Shown here: piece after piece, positions 670 to 47,550 of the stretch | Numbering within the stretch: position 1 is the first letter of the stretch | Layout: the number at the start of each line of letters is the position of its first letter | Virus record (IMG/VR): IMGVR_UViG_2534681704_000008 | DNA: 47,550 bases | Origin: a virus | Taxonomy: Duplodnaviria > Heunggongvirae > Uroviricota > Caudoviricetes | Strand: one strand, 5' to 3' | Notes under the pieces: model-generated | Told to the model about the DNA's origin: nothing | The model's database searches: none | What the model saw: the letters and a program-made list of their open reading frames with translations, nothing else | Program-made: the position numbers and the translations under genes

Positions 670-917
670 TAAGCCAGGAGACTATTGATCAATAATACTG
701 CGTCATAAGAAATCTCTATTAGACAAAGTAGACGCTCCTTCCACATGCGCCACAAGAAACCTCTATTCCAGTGACACAATTACGCCTGATTATTTCCCTA
801 GCCCGGAATATGAATAAAAACATCAACAAAGATTAAATTATTCAAACGTTACTGTTGCGTCTGCGGTCGTAACAACATCCGACGTGGTGATGTGTATCAA
901 ATGAGGCCTCTGATGAT

Positions 918-1051
918 CAGAGGGTTTATCGCGTATACGGATCGTGGATGGCAGAAAACTTTCAGAATCAGGTTTCCATTTTAAACCAGAAATTGAGTGA
1001 GTTTGCCCCATCCATGCCCCACGCGGTGAGATCGGATGTAATTAACAACAG
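918..1051 (+). pseudogene. Relic 3' end of a tyrosine integrase gene (about 45 C-terminal codons, no start)
   Basis: Translation ...QRVYRVYGSWMAENFQNQVSILNQKLSEFAPSMPHAVRSDVIN closely parallels the C-terminus of the intact integrase at 46255-47550 (...VYRVYGSWMAENNQDQVLILNQKLSEFAPSMPHAVGTDDY). Confidence 0.55.
984..1024. repeat. attL core: 41-bp direct repeat identical to 47488-47528
   Basis: aaccagaaattgagtgagtttgccccatccatgccccacgc occurs identically at both ends; flanks are homologous but diverged. Confidence 0.7.
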
Positions 1052-1185
1052 GTTACAAAACCTACACCTGCATGCTCATCATATGAGCATACATTTTTCA
1101 TAATCGACAAAGATCGTCCAAGAGCGCACCAAATAACAGATGGTTAGAGTCGTCGAAAACATCAGTCGTCTAAGTTCGCCTTAGA

Positions 1186-1222
1186 ACGAGTGCTGTTTTA
1201 TGCCCCATCCATGCCCCATCAC
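1186..1222. repeat. Degenerate third copy of the att core
   Basis: gagtgctgttttatgccccatccatgcccca shares a 17-bp identical block (gccccatccatgcccca, 1202-1218) with the att core; abuts the stop codon of the UmuD'-like gene. Confidence 0.45.
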
Positions 1223-1721: not shown

Positions 1722-2084
1722 ATGTTAAAGTTATTCGCCAAGTACACATCAATAGGCATCATCAACACGCTCATCCATTGGGTTGTGTTCGCCATATGCA
1801 TCTACGCATTCCATACTGGTCAGGCGCTTGGCAATTTTGCCGGTTTTGTTGTCGCTGTATCATTCAGCTTCTTCGCAAATGCCAGATTCACCTTTAAGTC
1901 ATCAACCACGACCCTGCGTTACATGTTGTATGTCGGATTTATGGGCACGCTAAGCGCTGCGATTGGCTGGATTGCTGATAAGTCAGGCATGGCGCCTGTA
2001 GTCACGTTAATCGTGTTCTCCGCAATCAGTCTGGTTTGCGGTTTCATTTATTCAAAATTCATTGTCTTTAGGGATGCGAAATGA
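1722..2084 (+). CDS. gtrA: GtrA bactoprenol-glucose flippase
   Basis: 120 aa, [23 protein letters not shown], four predicted TM helices; overlaps gtrB start. Confidence 0.85.
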
Positions 2085-2998
2085 AAATTTCTCTGGTCGT
2101 TCCTGTCTTCAACGAAGAAGACGCGATACCTATTTTTTATAAAACTGTTCGGGAATTTGAAGGACTTCAGCAACATGAAGTTGAGATAGTCTTCATAAAT
2201 GACGGAAGCAAAGACGCGACAGAATCAATCATAAACACGCTGGCTATTGCCGATCCGCTTATTGTTCCTCTGTCTTTCACGCGCAACTTTGGCAAGGAAT
2301 CAGCACTCTTTGCCGGCCTTGACCATGCAACTGGTGAAGCGGTTATCCCTATTGACGTTGACTTGCAAGATCCCATAGAAGTCATCCCGCACCTGATTGA
2401 GAAGTGGCAGCAGGGTTCGGATATGGTTCTGGCTAAGCGCTCTGACCGCTCAACTGATAGCCGACTGAAGCGTAAGTCAGCTGAGTGGTTTTATAAGCTT
2501 CACAACAAAATAAGCAACCCGAAAATTGAAGAGAACGTAGGCGATTTCCGGCTTATGTCTCGCGAAGTTGTTGAAAACATCAAGCTCATGCCAGAACGTA
2601 ATCTATTCATGAAAGGTATCTTGAGCTGGGTTGGCGGCAGAGCAGACGTTGTTGAATACGCTCGCGCAGAACGCGTTGCGGGAAATACAAAATTCAACGG
2701 GTGGAAACTGTGGAACCTTGCCCTTGAGGGTATAACTAGCTTCTCAACATTCCCTCTGCGCGTATGGACGTACATAGGGCTTATCGTTGCTGGCATAGCG
2801 TTTATCTACGGCGCATGGATGATCATCGATACGCTGGCATTTGGTAATGCTGTGCGCGGATATCCATCTCTACTTGTCTCCATCCTGTTCCTTGGGGGAG
2901 TGCAACTTATTGGGATTGGCGTTCTTGGTGAATATATTGGAAGAATATATATCGAGTCTAAAAAGCGACCTAAATACATTCTAAGGAAGATGAAATGA
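2081..2998 (+). CDS. gtrB: GtrB bactoprenol glucosyltransferase (GT2)
   Basis: 305 aa; N-terminal GT2 signature ([11 protein letters not shown]...DGSKD...DVDLQDP) and C-terminal TM helices. Confidence 0.9.
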
Positions 2999-4557
2999 GT
3001 TCGCGTGTTGGATTAATATCAATCTTTATTGTGTTTTTATTGGTGTTAATAATTCAATTGTTAACACCATTTCACTCTGATGATTTCGGTTTTTATCTGA
3101 AAGGGTACTCATTCGAGACCCTGCATCATGTTTACATGACGTGGAGCGGAAGGCTGTTCTCCGATTTTACTGGAAGCCTTGTAATGTCCATCAAGGACAA
3201 AACAATAATTTCATTTATAAATGCATGTGCTTTTACATCGTTAATTGTCGTTTTAACAAAGCTACCGCTTGAAAACAAAAACAACTGGCCTGTTTTTATT
3301 CTGTTGTTCATGCTTTATTGGATCGACAACCCAAGTTTGAGCCAGACAAGCTTCTGGGTAGTAGGCTCTGCTAACTATCTATGGACTAATCTCTTAGCCT
3401 ATTCATGGTTATATCTTTACTTCAGGTATGGTTCAACTTCAGATGTAAAAATGAAAGCTTTGTTATTGCTAATGGCTTTCATAACAGGCATGACAACAGA
3501 GAATCTAAGCACTTCAATATTCGGTGTTTTGTTCCTCTACAATGCCTTAAATTTCTATATAGAACGAAAAATAAACTGGTTATCTGTTTCTCAAATGCTG
3601 TTGCTGCTTGCAGGTGTTGGGGTATTACTACTTGCTCCAGGTAACTTTGTGAGGTCATCATCTTGTTGTTTTGATTTTTATTCCCAGCCTCTGATTACAA
3701 GGATAACAAATCATTTCCCCGGTAAGTTCATATCAGAAATGATGGAGTACAAGCATGTTATTGTTCTAACTGTCATTTCAATTGGTTATGGGCTATATAA
3801 AAAGAAAGATATGACGTTACCATTACTTTTTGTAATTGGTGCAATAGCTTCAAACGCCATGCTGTTCGCCTCACCAACAAATACAGGTAGAGTGTTAAAC
3901 ACGGGGTTGGTAATGATGTTGGCATCTCTTTCCTTTGCTTTGAGTTCAATATCTGAATTCAAGGCAAGTAAATTTCTAATTTATGTTGCATCTATTTTAT
4001 CTTTGGTTCTTTTTGCTCAGTCGTATGCTAACAATTACCAAAGCATAAAGAGTGTGTTTGCTCAGGATCAGATCAGAACGCAGATGATAAAAGACGGGTA
4101 TGATGCCATTCCATACTTTTATCAAGGAAGCATAGAGAAAGAATCAGATAAGCTTGACATATTTTTTAATTCAAGCGCTATTTCTAAATTTTATGGAGCA
4201 ACAAAGGATGTTGGCTTAATCGATCTTCCTTTTGATTATTCTTTGATGACGCAACAAAAGACAAATATTAATGATAGCTATTTCATTAACTTCAGGAAGC
4301 TTGACGACGTATTCCTTTTTGAAGTATCAAACCCTGATGTTAAATTTGAAAACTATATTTTGTTTTTCAGATTAACAATGGATGATGGTAGCGTTGAGAA
4401 TCATGATTTCATACCTGTTCTACGTAATTATAAAGGACATTTGTATTTGAACTCATGGAAAGTTGATACAAAAGGTAAAGAAATAAAGTTATTCGAGATT
4501 GGATTCTACGATCCGGCACTTAAGAAAAATGTAAGGTCTGTCAGCGTCCCTATGTAA
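2995..4557 (+). CDS. gtrC: GtrC-type serotype-specific O-antigen glucosyltransferase (polytopic membrane protein)
   Basis: 520 aa, many TM segments, low GC, immediately downstream of and overlapping gtrAB. Confidence 0.65.
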
Positions 4558-4565
4558 AAAAATAG

Positions 4566-4601
4566 CAGTGAGACAATTTCTTAACTGTTATTGTCTCACT
4601 G
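4566..4601. terminator. Bidirectional intrinsic terminator between gtrC and the tailspike gene
   Basis: Inverted repeat cagtgagacaat/attgtctcactg flanked by an A-run and a T-run. Confidence 0.6.
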
Positions 4602-4607
4602 TTTATA

Positions 4608-6551
4608 TTATGCACCTTTAATCATAATCCACTTCCCGCCAGATGAATCTGAAACAGTAAATACTGCTGAAGATAGAGCTGGTAAAGGGTAAGGGGTGTT
4701 TATCCCTAAACCTAATATTTGTTGACCTAACGTAGGATAAATGTTTATAGAATTAGCGGAAACATTTGCTATCTGTACACTATAACCAGTGCCAACATCA
4801 GTAGTCGATGGTAGTTTCGCTCCAGTTCCAGGGCCACTAGCATTAACAGTAACACACCCTGCTGTTACACCATATCCTGCCGCGCCAGATTGACCGCCTC
4901 CAGTTCCAGTGATTGATGCTACAGGTAAATTGCTTGCCTTAACTACTTTGCGAACAACCTGTGAATAACCACCTGAAATGGTGATGTCAATATCATCAGT
5001 ACTATGAGGAGTTCCATCAAATGCGGTTGGGGTGGTAGCGACTGAGTATCCTCTAACCCTGACGCTGTTATAACCTGCGCTATCTCCAAAATAAACTGCA
5101 TTCTGATCTTGTCCATTTGCGATAACATCTATTACCGCCCCTGAGACTCCACCAAACCCTCCACCAAATGTAATTCCTGTGGACAATGGAAGCCCAATAC
5201 CCTTGTACTCTTCACCGATGTAACATGAGATTCGTGGATTTGAACCCAGCAAAACTATATTAGAGCCAGCCCACGGATAATAAACCTTGCAAGACTCACT
5301 CAAAGTAAAGTTGTTTGCCTCTACGAATACGTTTGTATCAGCACCTTCGAAATGTGAGGTATTAAATTCATTCCCTTCGGCTGGCCTGCTTACTTTTAGC
5401 GCATATTTAGATCGTAAGTCGCTCGCACTGGTCCAGCAGTGTATTCCTGACCATCGTGCATTTCCTTTCTCTATCCAGAGACCTGAGTAAGTACTCGCAG
5501 TCTTCTGCCCTGAGCTGATGATAATAACATCATTAACCACACTATCGTGCGGCCCTGCAAATCTCCAGCCATCCTCCCCACTTTTATCGATAACAATTTT
5601 ACTGAATGAGCCTTCCATGCCACCATCAGCATTGCCTGAATCAGCCCATTCTGTTCTTAATCCGTTCTTGCCTGCGTTGATGATATTGACCTTATCGATT
5701 CTGGTTCTTGGACCATAAATAGCTATAGCAGAACCATTCGGGCTATTTGCTTTATCTGCATCAATGGAGAGGTTTTCAACAATAATTCCATCTTCACCAA
5801 GTAAAGAGTTAGTACCCCAGAGAGAATTTGAGTTAGCGCCATAGAGTAATGCGTTCACTGAACCAGCTAACAGCTTGAGTTTAGTTCTCTCCTGCCCCTG
5901 TCCTCTGATTGTTGTTTTTGAATAAAGCGTAAGCGGGCCGGTTAATGTTGTGCCAGCAGGAACTATGCACGGTTTTCCCGTTAATTTATTTTCTTCTATT
6001 GCTGCCTGAAAGTTAACAGTATCTACTGTTACACCATCACATATACAGCCCCAGCCGCGAATATCTCCCTCATCTCTCCAGCGCGCAATCTGAAGCTCAG
6101 GGTATTTTACCGCACCATCAGGATCTGATATTTGTCTACGAAGAACATCACTGACATCAACAGGCTGCCATTTCCCATCACCAGTCCCGCCAGCAGAAGA
6201 TGGGGTAGAACCTGGCGGGACACTTTTTGGTAATGTCTCCAGGTCATCCCATCGGTACCAAATATCCGTACTCTCATCCTGGAGAAGGTCTCCAGCTGAC
6301 GTCACAGTGCCGCCATCCTGGAAAGATCCCCTCAGGTTCCATCCAAGGTTGTATATCTGCTGAAGCACTAACTGCTTCAGGCCTTCAATTGTATAGTGTG
6401 CTTTGCCAAAGCGATCAATGTATTGCTGAGAAATTGTGGTGACAAACTCGTCAATTTTCGCACCACCGAATACATGATCGCGAATATCAGGGCTTGGTAC
6501 AGGGTTTTGCGTCGGAGTTGGTACCGGGATGTTTGCGTATGAATCGGCCAT
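4608..6551 (-). CDS. Tailspike / side tail fiber with beta-helix (pectate-lyase-like) domain
   Basis: 647 aa; Gly/Ser/Thr/Asn-rich beta-helix-type composition; last gene of the tail module, next to gtr. Confidence 0.65.
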   Translation of the reverse strand: MADSYANIPVPTPTQNPVPSPDIRDHVFGGAKIDEFVTTISQQYIDRFGKAHYTIEGLKQLVLQQIYNLGWNLRGSFQDGGTVTSAGDLLQDESTDIWYRWDDLETLPKSVPPGSTPSSAGGTGDGKWQPVDVSDVLRRQISDPDGAVKYPELQIARWRDEGDIRGWGCICDGVTVDTVNFQAAIEENKLTGKPCIVPAGTTLTGPLTLYSKTTIRGQGQERTKLKLLAGSVNALLYGANSNSLWGTNSLLGEDGIIVENLSIDADKANSPNGSAIAIYGPRTRIDKVNIINAGKNGLRTEWADSGNADGGMEGSFSKIVIDKSGEDGWRFAGPHDSVVNDVIIISSGQKTASTYSGLWIEKGNARWSGIHCWTSASDLRSKYALKVSRPAEGNEFNTSHFEGADTNVFVEANNFTLSESCKVYYPWAGSNIVLLGSNPRISCYIGEEYKGIGLPLSTGITFGGGFGGVSGAVIDVIANGQDQNAVYFGDSAGYNSVRVRGYSVATTPTAFDGTPHSTDDIDITISGGYSQVVRKVVKASNLPVASITGTGGGQSGAAGYGVTAGCVTVNASGPGTGAKLPSTTDVGTGYSVQIANVSANSINIYPTLGQQILGLGINTPYPLPALSSAVFTVSDSSGGKWIMIKGA

Positions 6552-35109: not shown

Positions 35110-35174
35110 TTTAGCGTTATGCTAAATACTACGCAAGCATCATTTAGCAATTTGCACATTTATCATTTTGCTAA
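35110..35174. promoter_or_regulatory. OR operator cluster between cro and cI
   Basis: 17-bp palindrome TTTAGCgttatGCTAAA (35110-35126) plus weaker copies at about 35143-35159 and 35158-35174. Confidence 0.6.
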
Positions 35175-35193
35175 AAGAAGTAACAATGCAGGG

Positions 35194-35871
35194 ATGGAAA
35201 ATAAAGAAATCAGAAAAGCCAACCTGGAAGCGCTGTATGAGAAGCGCCAGCACGAGTCTGGAATGACCAAGGCACAGTTCGCCGAGCTCATCGAGACAAG
35301 TCCGGCTGCGCTTAGCCAGCTACTGGGACCAAACCCTCATCGCAATATCGGCGATAAGATGGCTCGCAAAATTGAATCTGCGCTTGATCTGCCTTTTGGC
35401 TGGATGGATGTTTTACACGCCAGTGAAGAACCTTCGAACGTTGCATTTCGAGGACTGAACGAGACAAAAGGAAGTTATCCTGTAATCAGCTGGGTAAGTG
35501 CGGGGCAATGGATGGAAGCTGTAGAACCTTATCACCGAAGAGCGATTGATCGCTGGTATGACACTACCGTTGTCTGCTCAGACGATTCATTCTGGCTGGA
35601 CGTTAAAGGGGATTCTATGACCTCCCCGGCCGGGCTGAGCATTCCTGAGGGAGCGGCTATTTTAGTTGATCCTGAAATCGAGCCACGCAATGGGAAGTTG
35701 GTTGTAGCGAAGCTTGAAGGCGATAACGAAGCGACCTTTAAGAAGCTTGTAATTGATGCCGGCAGACGCTTCCTTAAGCCACTTAACCCCGCATATCCAA
35801 TGATAGAGGTTAATGGCAACTGCAAAATTATCGGCGTTGTTGTTGATGCGAAGATACTAAACATCCCATAA
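35194..35871 (+). CDS. cI: CI repressor (HTH plus S24 LexA-like autopeptidase)
   Basis: 225 aa from MENKEIRK; intact catalytic Ser (GDSM) and Lys (FKKL). Confidence 0.85.
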   Translation: MENKEIRKANLEALYEKRQHESGMTKAQFAELIETSPAALSQLLGPNPHRNIGDKMARKIESALDLPFGWMDVLHASEEPSNVAFRGLNETKGSYPVISWVSAGQWMEAVEPYHRRAIDRWYDTTVVCSDDSFWLDVKGDSMTSPAGLSIPEGAAILVDPEIEPRNGKLVVAKLEGDNEATFKKLVIDAGRRFLKPLNPAYPMIEVNGNCKIIGVVVDAKILNIP

Positions 35872-35891
35872 CCTAACGCTAAACCCTTCAA

Positions 35892-35916
35892 GCCCGCCGT
35901 CGTGCGGGTTTTTTTA
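35892..35916 (+). terminator. Intrinsic terminator after cI
   Basis: cccgc-cgtcgt-gcggg hairpin followed by ttttttt. Confidence 0.6.
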
Positions 35917-35954
35917 TGCCCTAAATTCCTCCCCAGTAAATTTTAATCGCTTAT

Positions 35955-36028
35955 TAATCAATACGCTAAATAAAATCCATCAATAATTTAGCATTTTGCT
36001 ATTGCGCATAATTTAGCATCACGCTAAA
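35955..36028. promoter_or_regulatory. OL operator cluster
   Basis: Perfect TTTAGCatcacGCTAAA at 36012-36028 and weaker copies at 35987-36003 and 35955-35971. Confidence 0.6.
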
Positions 36029-45963: not shown

Positions 45964-46209
45964 ATGAGCGAAATTATTCAAATCGTGCCCAGTGACTGGG
46001 TGACAGAAGACCTGCTTGTGAAGATGACAGGGCTACGCCCGGGAACGATAGCGCGGGCCCGTAAAAAAAGCTGGCTCTGCGGCAGGGAGTACGTCCACAT
46101 GTCTCCGGACAGTGTCCCAAAGGAAAACAGCGAGTGCTTGTATAACCACAAAGCGATCGACCAGTGGGTTGAGAGCCTCAAAAAGAAACAGCCAGGTGCG
46201 CGCCAATGA
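45964..46209 (+). CDS. xis: Excisionase
   Basis: 81 aa, basic, immediately upstream of int. Confidence 0.7.
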   Translation: MSEIIQIVPSDWVTEDLLVKMTGLRPGTIARARKKSWLCGREYVHMSPDSVPKENSECLYNHKAIDQWVESLKKKQPGARQ

Positions 46210-46254: not shown

Positions 46255-47550
46255 ATGGCTAAGTCAGCATACCCAACAGGCGTGGAGAATCATGGCGGTA
46301 CGCTCCGCATATGGTTCATCTATAAAGGCAGCCGGGTGCGTGAAAGCCTCGGCGTGCCGGATACACCAAAAAATAGAAAAGTAGCTGGCGAGTTACGCGC
46401 GTCGGTGTGCTTCGCGATAAAGACAGGCAACTTCAACTATGCCGCACAGTTCCCTGACTCGCCGAACCTGAGAAGATTTGGGGTGGAGAGCAAGGAAATC
46501 ACCGTGCTCGAACTGGCGAACAAGTGGCTTGAACTGAAGCGTATGGAGATCAGCACCAACGCGATGTCACGTTATACATCTATAACGCGCAATATGGTAC
46601 CGCGGATCGGCGGAGACAGGCTGGTATCTGCGGTGACGCAGGAAGACCTGCTGTTTATCAGAAAGGAACTGCTGACCGGGTATCAGACGCTGAAGGCTGG
46701 ACACAAAACACCAGTTAAAGGCCGCACAGTCAGAACGGTCAACAACTACATGAAGACCATGGCTGGCATGTTCAAGTTCGCTGCTGAAAGTGGTTATGTG
46801 AAGGTGAGCCCTTTCACCGGGATCGCCCTTCTCAAGCGTTCGCGTTGCGAGCCTGATCCGCTCACCCGCGATGAGTTTGTCAGGCTGATTAACGCTTGCG
46901 CCACCCAGCAGTTGAAAAACATGTGGTCGCTGGCAGTGTACACCGGCGTGCGCCACGGTGAACTGGTGTCGCTGGCCTGGGAAGATATCGACCTGAAAGC
47001 AGGAACGATGATGATCCGCCGAAACCACACGTTGACGAAGGAGTTTACCCTTCCGAAAACCGAGGCTGGGACAAACCGCATCATCAACCTTATTCAGCCA
47101 GCTATTGACGTGCTGAAGAACCAGGCCGAATTAACCCGCCTGGGTAAGCAGTATCAGGTAGAGGTGAAACTGCGTGAGTTTGGTCGCACAGAAGTGCATC
47201 CGTGCACATTCGTGTTTAACCCACAAAAAGGATTGCGCAATGGCCGTGCAGGGCATCATTACGCAGTGGGGTCGATCAACCAGTCGTGGGAGGCAGCAAT
47301 GCGACGCGCCGGGATTCGCTATCGCAGAGCATACCAGTCCCGACACACGTATGCATGCTGGTCGTTGGCCGCCGGTGCTAACCCGAACTTCATCGCGAAG
47401 CAAATGGGCCACACCGACGCACAAATGGTTTACCGGGTGTACGGATCCTGGATGGCTGAAAATAACCAGGACCAGGTACTCATCCTCAACCAGAAATTGA
47501 GTGAGTTTGCCCCATCCATGCCCCACGCAGTGGGAACGGATGATTATTAA
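46255..47550 (+). CDS. int: Tyrosine integrase (lambda Int family)
   Basis: 431 aa, AGGAGGG RBS; catalytic region RHTYACWSLAAGANPNFIAKQMGHTDAQMVYRVY; the 3' end contains the att core. Confidence 0.9.
   Translation: MAKSAYPTGVENHGGTLRIWFIYKGSRVRESLGVPDTPKNRKVAGELRASVCFAIKTGNFNYAAQFPDSPNLRRFGVESKEITVLELANKWLELKRMEISTNAMSRYTSITRNMVPRIGGDRLVSAVTQEDLLFIRKELLTGYQTLKAGHKTPVKGRTVRTVNNYMKTMAGMFKFAAESGYVKVSPFTGIALLKRSRCEPDPLTRDEFVRLINACATQQLKNMWSLAVYTGVRHGELVSLAWEDIDLKAGTMMIRRNHTLTKEFTLPKTEAGTNRIINLIQPAIDVLKNQAELTRLGKQYQVEVKLREFGRTEVHPCTFVFNPQKGLRNGRAGHHYAVGSINQSWEAAMRRAGIRYRRAYQSRHTYACWSLAAGANPNFIAKQMGHTDAQMVYRVYGSWMAENNQDQVLILNQKLSEFAPSMPHAVGTDDY
47488..47528. repeat. attR core: 41-bp direct repeat identical to 984-1024, inside the int 3' end
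   Basis: Exact identity with 984-1024. Confidence 0.7.

Follow-up and report, generated by a model that had tools for sequence, protein, structure and literature searches.

The window analysed here is a 47,550-nt stretch of viral DNA (IMG/VR record IMGVR_UViG_2534681704_000008) that begins with the ATG of yedK and ends exactly with the stop codon of an integrase gene. yedK itself (1–669, + strand) encodes an SOS-response-associated peptidase, was assigned from its open reading frame and from the annotation of matching E. coli genomes, and forms the chromosomal left flank. Further to the right lies a stub of an integrase C-terminus (898–1061, +), a chromosomal pseudogene relic of the intG type that was recognised by its homology to int 3' ends from ~898 onwards. 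It is followed on the opposite strand by an orphaned end of fliE (1062–1081, −), which consists of a TAG stop codon, preceded by the five final codons (MSMQV) and by two bases of the Val codon ahead of them. The fliE reading frame of the window stops short at 1081/1082, while the fliE CDS of empty sites continues onward.

Phage DNA then starts with the P' arm of attL (1082–1218, +), and the first cargo behind it is a 129-aa UmuD'/HumD-like S24 peptidase gene (1219–1608, −; open reading frame with PF00717), whose TGA stop codon occupies 1219–1221. At the opposite end of the window, an excisionase-like gene (45964–46209, +; 81 aa) sits just upstream of int. It was assigned by PF06806 on the 81-aa product of an identical locus in another assembly (L086, see below), and the homologous CDS is annotated as an excisionase in the phages CobraSix and IdasGreatGrand. 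int (46255–47550, +) encodes an intact tyrosine integrase of 431 aa with an Arm-DNA-bind_2 domain (PF12167, E 5.8e-25, residues 7–70) and a PF00589 domain (E 8.3e-19), and its 3' end constitutes the P arm of attR.

Limits of chromosomal and phage DNA

A search of 5426 complete E. coli genomes with positions 1–1300 returned 1146 genomes in which one match covered at least 80% of the query. Positions 1–1081 appeared as one unbroken stretch from yedK to the fliE 3' end, at 100% identity, in prophage-free E. coli (among the best 29 matches listed; CP53 is an example). Because 1062–1081 are the end of fliE and 1–1081 are contiguous in empty sites, the chromosome reaches 57 bp past a 41-bp block at 984–1024, which the initial annotation had taken, together with its copy at 47488–47528, for the repeats that bound the prophage. 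The two copies are identical over exactly 41 bp as described, but everything up to 1081 is chromosomal, and the host/phage junction falls at 1081/1082. The true prophage boundary, with the first phage base, is therefore 1082, and neither 984 nor 1025. The longest flanking direct repeat can mislead the calling of att sites where a homologous integrase stub adjoins the site. Sequence comparison on either side of the junction gave the same picture: 1025–1067 matched attB and showed ~64–66% identity to phage attP and attR, while 1082–1222 was 93–96% identical to phage attP (93–96% for the P' arm against attP of CobraSix and of two contigs, L021 and L073) and 49% identical to attB on its fliE side, a value at the random level.

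The exact prophage was absent from the complete E. coli genomes searched, where the top match to the int 3' end reached 94.4%, and attR was consequently sought by looking up the exact Int protein. The attR used here comes from a separate public assembly, GCA_043291985.1 (L086), which has 0 mismatches to the last 4296 nt of the window and possibly derives from a different strain. The P' arm was present in 19 of the 5426 E. coli genomes, several of which carry IS-truncated remnants; the element is rare in E. coli.

Mapping of the att core

All four sites were compared, with attL taken from the window, attB from CP53 and K-12, attP from the free phage CobraSix, and attR from L086, in which fliE, in convergent orientation, is reached 26 bp past the int stop and the core lies 33–46 nt past the window end. 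attB reads ...cctacac CTGCATGCTCATCA cttcctgat... and attL ...cctacac CTGCATGCTCATCA tatgagcat..., while attR reads ...cctaaac CTGCATGCCCATCA cttcctgat... and attP ...cctaaac TTGCATGCCCATCA catgagcat.... The layout of attB in fliE is thus ...CCTACAC-CTGCATGCTCATCA-CTTCCTGAT, and that of phage attP is the int stop, 32 nt, CTGCATGCCCATCA-(C/T)ATGAGCAT..., ~118 nt, and TGCCCCAnnnnTGCCCCA. In attL, the host allele GCTCATCA is followed by phage tatgagcat, and in attR, the phage allele GCCCATCA is followed by host cttcctgat. The core was placed by this comparison at 1068–1092 (no strand assigned), with CTGCATGCTCATCA at 1068–1081 as the part in common with attB, attP, and attR; across all four sites, the shared sequence is CTGCATGC(T/C)CATCA. 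An imperfect inverted repeat surrounds 1080–1082, with GCATGCTCAT (1070–1079) and ATGAGCATAC (1083–1092) matching at 9 of 10 positions.

Position 1076 is T in the host and C in the phage, and this difference travels with the left flank, while host and phage sequences diverge at 1082/1083. Since the T/C difference stays on the left and the host/phage split lies at 1082/1083, the comparison places strand exchange inside CATCA(C), at 1077–1082 and hence in the last codons of fliE; these limits derive from natural polymorphisms, and heteroduplex repair in the overlap could move them by a few bases. The same allele pattern at 1076 and 1082/1083 held in three independent E. coli lysogens, including 30EVA1 and 06-00048. 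HL15 carries GCTCAT in attL and attR alike and was uninformative at 1076. Between the flanking differences, attP and attB are identical over only 5–6 bases in E. coli, which is short compared to the typical overlap of 6–8 bp, and the dyad centre (~1081) together with the attP/attB identity CATCAC did not yield a unique 6–8-bp overlap.

int, core, and P' arm were contiguous in the free attP of CobraSix, of IdasGreatGrand, and of the metagenomic IMG/VR contigs L021 and L073, an arrangement that matches the attP junction expected from excision at the fliE core. Most IMG/VR contigs with relatives of Int were prophage calls ending exactly at the int stop and ~10 were longer, of which L021 and L073 alone supplied attP. 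Beyond the P' arm, L021 and L073 carry a umuD'-like gene of the window type and CobraSix a umuDC module.

The locus is thus an ordinary attL: a lambda-like prophage sits in the final codons of fliE, and its left end adjoins a dead integrase stub. attB had initially been placed within a leftover integrase 3' fragment beside yedK; such a fragment does lie there, in empty sites as well, but attB is formed by the 3' end of fliE, which follows directly downstream. After integration, attL keeps the chromosomal left side (yedK, the relic, and the orphaned tail of fliE) and continues into the P' arm of the phage, while at attR the remainder of fliE is connected to int and to the fliE tail that the phage brings.

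Replacement of the fliE end

The phage supplies a replacement 3' end for fliE, and the gene is intact at attR with one substitution: the C-terminus of FliE changes from ...EVMSMQV in empty sites to ...EVMGMQV in the lysogen (Ser101Gly). Lysogeny thereby rewrites the last codons of FliE. The Ser to Gly change at residue 101 was read in L086 at 4323–4637, corresponding to ~47577–47891 just past the window end; it also occurs in 30EVA1 and 06-00048, and HL15 keeps Ser.

e14 and phage 21, both in icd, are prophages that occupy the 3' terminus of a protein-coding gene and bring along a replacement for it. As in those cases, attP copies the last codons of the target, the gene survives integration, and the original end is orphaned at the other junction; the present case differs in that only five to six codons are replaced, with one amino-acid change in FliE. 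Literature searches on intG, fliE and prophages, and on fliE integration sites returned mostly irrelevant items, with the sole relevant one being a Cronobacter pan-genome table that lists a prophage at fliE (PMC3680222). In these searches, I found no description of the att site of the integrase family that targets fliE, and nothing on the att sites of CobraSix.

One further fliE end stood apart. E. coli ECDA1023 (L133, CP178308.1) has a relic of the K-12 type, but the core and the end of fliE beyond it (ctgcatccccataacttcctgatagg) are divergent, which suggests a replaced or recombinant fliE allele.

Heptamer pairs in the attachment site arms

The 18-nt sequence TGCCCCATCCATGCCCCA, two TGCCCCA heptamers separated by four bases, occurs exactly at 1004, 1201, and 47508. 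Allowing up to two mismatches, the window contains 3 matches to TGCCCCATCCATGCCCCA compared to 0.42 expected, and 3 were reached in 1 of 100 shuffles. The first copy (1004–1021, +) belongs to the relic, at −78/−67 from the junction and 11 bp closer than in a functional attP. The second (1201–1218, +) is proposed as an arm-type Int site that marks the outer limit of attP on the P' side, and the third (47508–47525, +) lies in the P arm inside the int coding sequence at −89/−78. Five attPs had their heptamer pairs at exactly these distances in the P arm, −89/−78 and inside int, and at +119/+130 in the P' arm.

When one genome of each prokaryotic species was scanned for TTTGCCCCATCCATGCCCCA, 44 loci emerged, almost all of them in Enterobacterales, in genera including Enterobacter, Lelliottia, Rahnella, Cedecea, Hafnia, Atlantibacter, Citrobacter, Phytobacter, Siccibacter, and Escherichia. 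Divergent elements (from Rahnella, Cedecea, Hafnia, Atlantibacter, Pseudocitrobacter, and Enterobacter) carried the motif at exactly −89 and again at +117 to +119, while the spacer between core and motif was 57% identical between distant genera, compared to 51 ± 2% for shuffled sequence. In 11 aligned P' arms, homology ended 3–10 bp past the second heptamer, and the genes that follow varied among these 11 elements (umuD', umuDC, an SRAP/yedK-like gene, hypotheticals, or a tailspike).

The copy in the P' arm had been described as a third, degenerate core copy at 1186–1222 that abuts the stop codon of the UmuD'-like gene, and as the nested scar of an earlier event. The 18-nt copy at 1201–1218 does touch the TGA at 1219–1221, but over 1186–1222 only 22 of 37 bases match. 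The scar itself found no support: the same copy occupies the same offset in attP of CobraSix, IdasGreatGrand, L021, and L073, and elements of Rahnella, Atlantibacter, and Pseudocitrobacter have it at +117 to +119. Being present at a fixed offset in free phages and in distant genera, it belongs to attP and is most likely an arm-type integrase-binding site.

Judged by their position and conservation, both heptamer pairs would be arm-type sites for the N-terminal domain of Int. Residues 1–70 of Int, the arm-binding domain, are the best conserved in distant homologues that share the motif, with 72–77% compared to 40–65% for the core-binding residues 71–200. An IHF-consensus-like sequence, TAACAACAGGTTA (1043–1055, +), has one mismatch to WATCAANNNNTTR; such a one-mismatch site, a consensus match only, was found at −39 in the three phage attPs scanned as well as in the relic. 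In the mechanism proposed here, the N-terminal domain of Int would bind both heptamer pairs and thereby bridge arms and core in the manner of a lambda-style intasome, which Xis and an IHF-like bend at −39 would assist.

An improbable alternative is that the att architecture is as described, but that the TGCCCCA pairs bind another factor (Xis, a host protein, or a repressor), or that the P copy is conserved as coding sequence only and the P' copy has an unrelated function, for example as a boundary for the exchange of cargo genes. The P-arm pair is indeed coding and specifies the conserved peptide FAPSMPH, so that its conservation lies partly at the protein level, and cargo modules switch exactly beyond the P' copy. 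However, one and the same 18-mer is found in non-coding P' and coding P DNA, and its distances from the core are fixed across genera while the neighbouring DNA is near random. The dedicated arm-binding domain is, moreover, the most conserved part of Int, and the Xis sites of lambda are confined to one arm. The reading of the pairs as arm sites is accordingly kept: positions 898–1222 very probably constitute the complete attL of a ~46.5-kb lambdoid prophage, with a core at the fliE end, a relic that is chromosomal, and heptamer pairs that are candidate Int arm sites. This provides an attP map for a widespread enterobacterial integrase module, with its core, a candidate arm-site consensus (TGCCCCA-N4-TGCCCCA), and their spacing.

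The integrase relic next to fliE

The initial annotation had noted an integrase C-terminus at 918–1051. The homology is real and the sequence translates as an Int C-terminus, but it starts at ~898, extends to the spacer before the core, and lies in an open reading frame that continues to 1103. The relic stretch translates as QRVYRVYGSWMAENFQNQVSILNQKLSEFAPSMPHAVRSDVINNR, compared to QMVYRVYGSWMAENNQDQVLILNQKLSEFAPSMPHAVGTDDY* for the C-terminus of the live Int. Together with the 6 bp up to the core (898–1067), it was 86–87% identical to int of the IdasGreatGrand/UTAK-1 type and 74% identical to the resident int; relative to IdasGreatGrand, it has an 11-bp deletion that takes away the stop codon.

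A comparison with prophage-free genomes at the yedK locus confirmed that integrase-like sequence is present in empty sites, and the relic adjoins fliE in 5309 of the 5426 complete E. coli genomes. The K-12 annotation names it intG (b1936), a pseudogene of a "cryptic prophage PR-G". The relic of the window shares with K-12 intG its position directly upstream of the fliE 3' end, which it also overlaps, its left boundary, the 11-bp deletion, and an identical 41-bp block and core. In contrast, K-12 has yedL and yedN between yedK and the relic, where the window has the short spacing seen in CP53, and there are a few point differences.

The order of int C-terminus, spacer, core, and fliE is the geometry of an attR junction, and the simplest reading is that an earlier prophage resembling IdasGreatGrand was deleted down to a stub, so that the relic would be the fossil of its P arm and attR side. 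K-12 intG would thus be explained as the fossil attR side of a phage that targets fliE. Deletions reaching further would remove part of fliE itself, which probably explains why the stub has survived.

Relics in L143–L146, L104, L132, L141, and L136 were aligned to positions 840–1081 of the window, and at least four haplotypes could be read in E. coli. They have two left truncation points (one of which adjoins an emrE-like gene), an 11-bp deletion that is present or absent and is flanked by AACA repeats, and a core with GCTCAT or the Idas-type GGACAT, both of which code for Ser, and these left ends, deletion states, and core alleles occur in all combinations. The mix suggests recurrent events or recombination among relics, and stubs adjoining fliE were also found in Lelliottia, Hafnia, Rahnella, and E. 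ruysiae. Serial integration at this site had been proposed on the basis of the third motif copy, which is no evidence for it; repeated use of the site is indicated instead by the relic haplotypes, at least four in number and with two left ends.

The relic retains a heptamer pair, shifted towards the core by 11 bp or one helical turn, in addition to its IHF-like site. With a relic P arm, a core, and a P' arm, each E. coli attL of the fliE-phage family is a near-complete look-alike of attP, and the E. coli attB is attR-like. It is nevertheless quite unlikely that the relic influences the site-specific recombination of the phage and is more than inert debris. If it did, Xis-independent excision by an "integrative-type" attL × attR synapse might be possible, and the efficiency of integration into E. 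coli might be altered (the P' arm being found in so few of its genomes), or the relic might provide a landing pad for tandem lysogeny.

Origin of the 41-bp identity

The 41-bp block (984–1024, +) is a stretch of the int 3' end that is conserved throughout the family, and its exact identity to 47488–47528 is not the product of crossover. That homology extends beyond the repeat, as first noted, was borne out: 918–1038 and 47422–47542 were 82% identical, with an integrase C-terminus in both. The block, aaccagaaattgagtgagTTTGCCCCATCCATGCCCCAcgc, was near-invariant in 9 functional int genes (78–100% overall identity) and 5 relics, including those of prophage-free strains, and on this sequence evidence the identity is due to conservation within the family and not to recombination. 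Its conservation is accounted for by a double role, as the block encodes protein and also carries the TGCCCCA pair, with the two heptamers at its centre 11 bp apart.

That the identity stems from recent RecA-dependent gene conversion or recombination between an incoming int and the relic is very unlikely. A perfect run of 41 bp is long within a background of 82% identity, and relic haplotypes do look mosaic, with the 11-bp deletion and the core alleles in every combination with two left ends; however, the block shows virtually no variation among all functional int genes and the relics of prophage-free strains, and K-12, which has no such phage, carries an identical one. Gene conversion is therefore not needed to explain the identity and was dropped as a requirement. 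Hardly credible at all is the original proposal of the 41-bp repeat as the att core, with integration inside the integrase relic and 1186–1222 as a nested scar of earlier integration and excision: direct repeats of 41 bp do flank nearly the whole prophage, the relic is truly present, and so is the third 18-nt copy, but 1025–1081 would then have to be phage DNA and is instead chromosomal (100% identical in empty sites, ~65% to the phage), the DNA past the right-hand block tracks phage attP and not attB, the third copy occurs at a fixed offset in free phage genomes, and the comparative junctions map to 1077–1082 rather than to the repeat.

Comparison with known attachment sites

The attP, attL, and attR sites of lambda, with their arm-type sites for Int and with Xis and IHF, are an established system, and the att architecture described here is of this textbook type, and the relic is an already annotated pseudogene; the general picture of site-specific recombination is unchanged by these results. 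Shared with lambda are a tyrosine integrase with an N-terminal arm-binding domain and an excisionase gene beside int, a short core with imperfect inverted repeats around the crossover, and repeated arm motifs that are unlike the core and lie in both arms ~80–130 bp away; the IHF-like consensus between the P-arm sites and the core is a hint at a further likeness. Different from lambda are the TGCCCCA arm motif and the core sequence, the position of the P arm within the int coding sequence, the target, which lies not between genes but at the 3' terminus of a protein-coding one (fliE), and the arm domain, which is PF12167 and not of the lambda type.

The closest counterparts were the Enterobacter phage vB_EclS_CobraSix (NC_071003) and the Escherichia phage IdasGreatGrand (PP925829), which share the xis-int-attP module (int at 90% and 78% nucleotide identity, respectively), the core, the spacing, and the heptamer pairs. 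CobraSix also has umuD-type cargo past the P' arm, namely umuD and umuC, whereas the window has a umuD'-like gene alone, followed by gtrABC. The remaining prophage in the window is mosaic, with a structural region that is best matched by other Enterobacter and Klebsiella phages at no more than 33% coverage. The IntBPP-1 subgroup of arm-binding tyrosine recombinases is defined by the DUF3596/PF12167 domain (Smyshlyaev et al., 2021; PMC8138268), which the Int of the window shares, a likeness at the level of this domain.

Cargo and related elements at the same site

A LexA-box-like sequence (CTGTATATGCATACAG, 1628–1643) lies upstream of the start of the UmuD'/HumD-like gene. This gene has no umuC partner in the window, while CobraSix carries umuD and a gene for a umuC-like polymerase at that place. 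Directly after it, a gtrA-gtrB-gtrC-like cluster for O-antigen glucosylation (seroconversion) spans 1722–4557 as attP-adjacent cargo. Elsewhere in the window, a 19-nt AT-rich motif (ATAATTTAGCATTTTGCTA-like; repeat family D2) occurs four times at 35139–36026, in two pairs ~830 bp apart, and may represent operator sites of the immunity region.

In related phages, an SRAP (yedK-like) gene of their own directly borders the P' arm on its right: 30EVA1 (L093, 1694–2365), 06-00048 (L091, 5169–5549), and a Pseudocitrobacter element (L134). After integration, this phage gene lies within a few kb of chromosomal yedK. E. coli 06-00048 harbours a mini-element at the same site (L091, 3567–9309), in which IS3 has inserted into the P' arm and ~5 kb are left between attL and attR; its xis and int look intact.

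E. coli 63-2 (L090, NZ_CP050040.1) and six further records (H67–H72) contain remnants made up of the relic, core, P' arm, umuD'-like gene, and one further gene. In these, IS1 is joined to a truncated fliR, and fliE through most of fliR is deleted, so that the strains are presumably non-motile. In E. coli ECCWS199 (L094, NZ_CP032237.1; 1010–1340), a fossil attP of the Idas type lies behind an intS-type integrase gene and consists of a ~100-bp int C-terminal stub with a heptamer pair, the core CTGCATGGACATCA, and a complete P' arm that has a heptamer pair as well. An integrase module seems to have been replaced here, with the old attP left behind; the arrangement was matched in H76–H78, and the relic adjoining fliE in E. 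ruysiae (L132) resembles the L094 stub.
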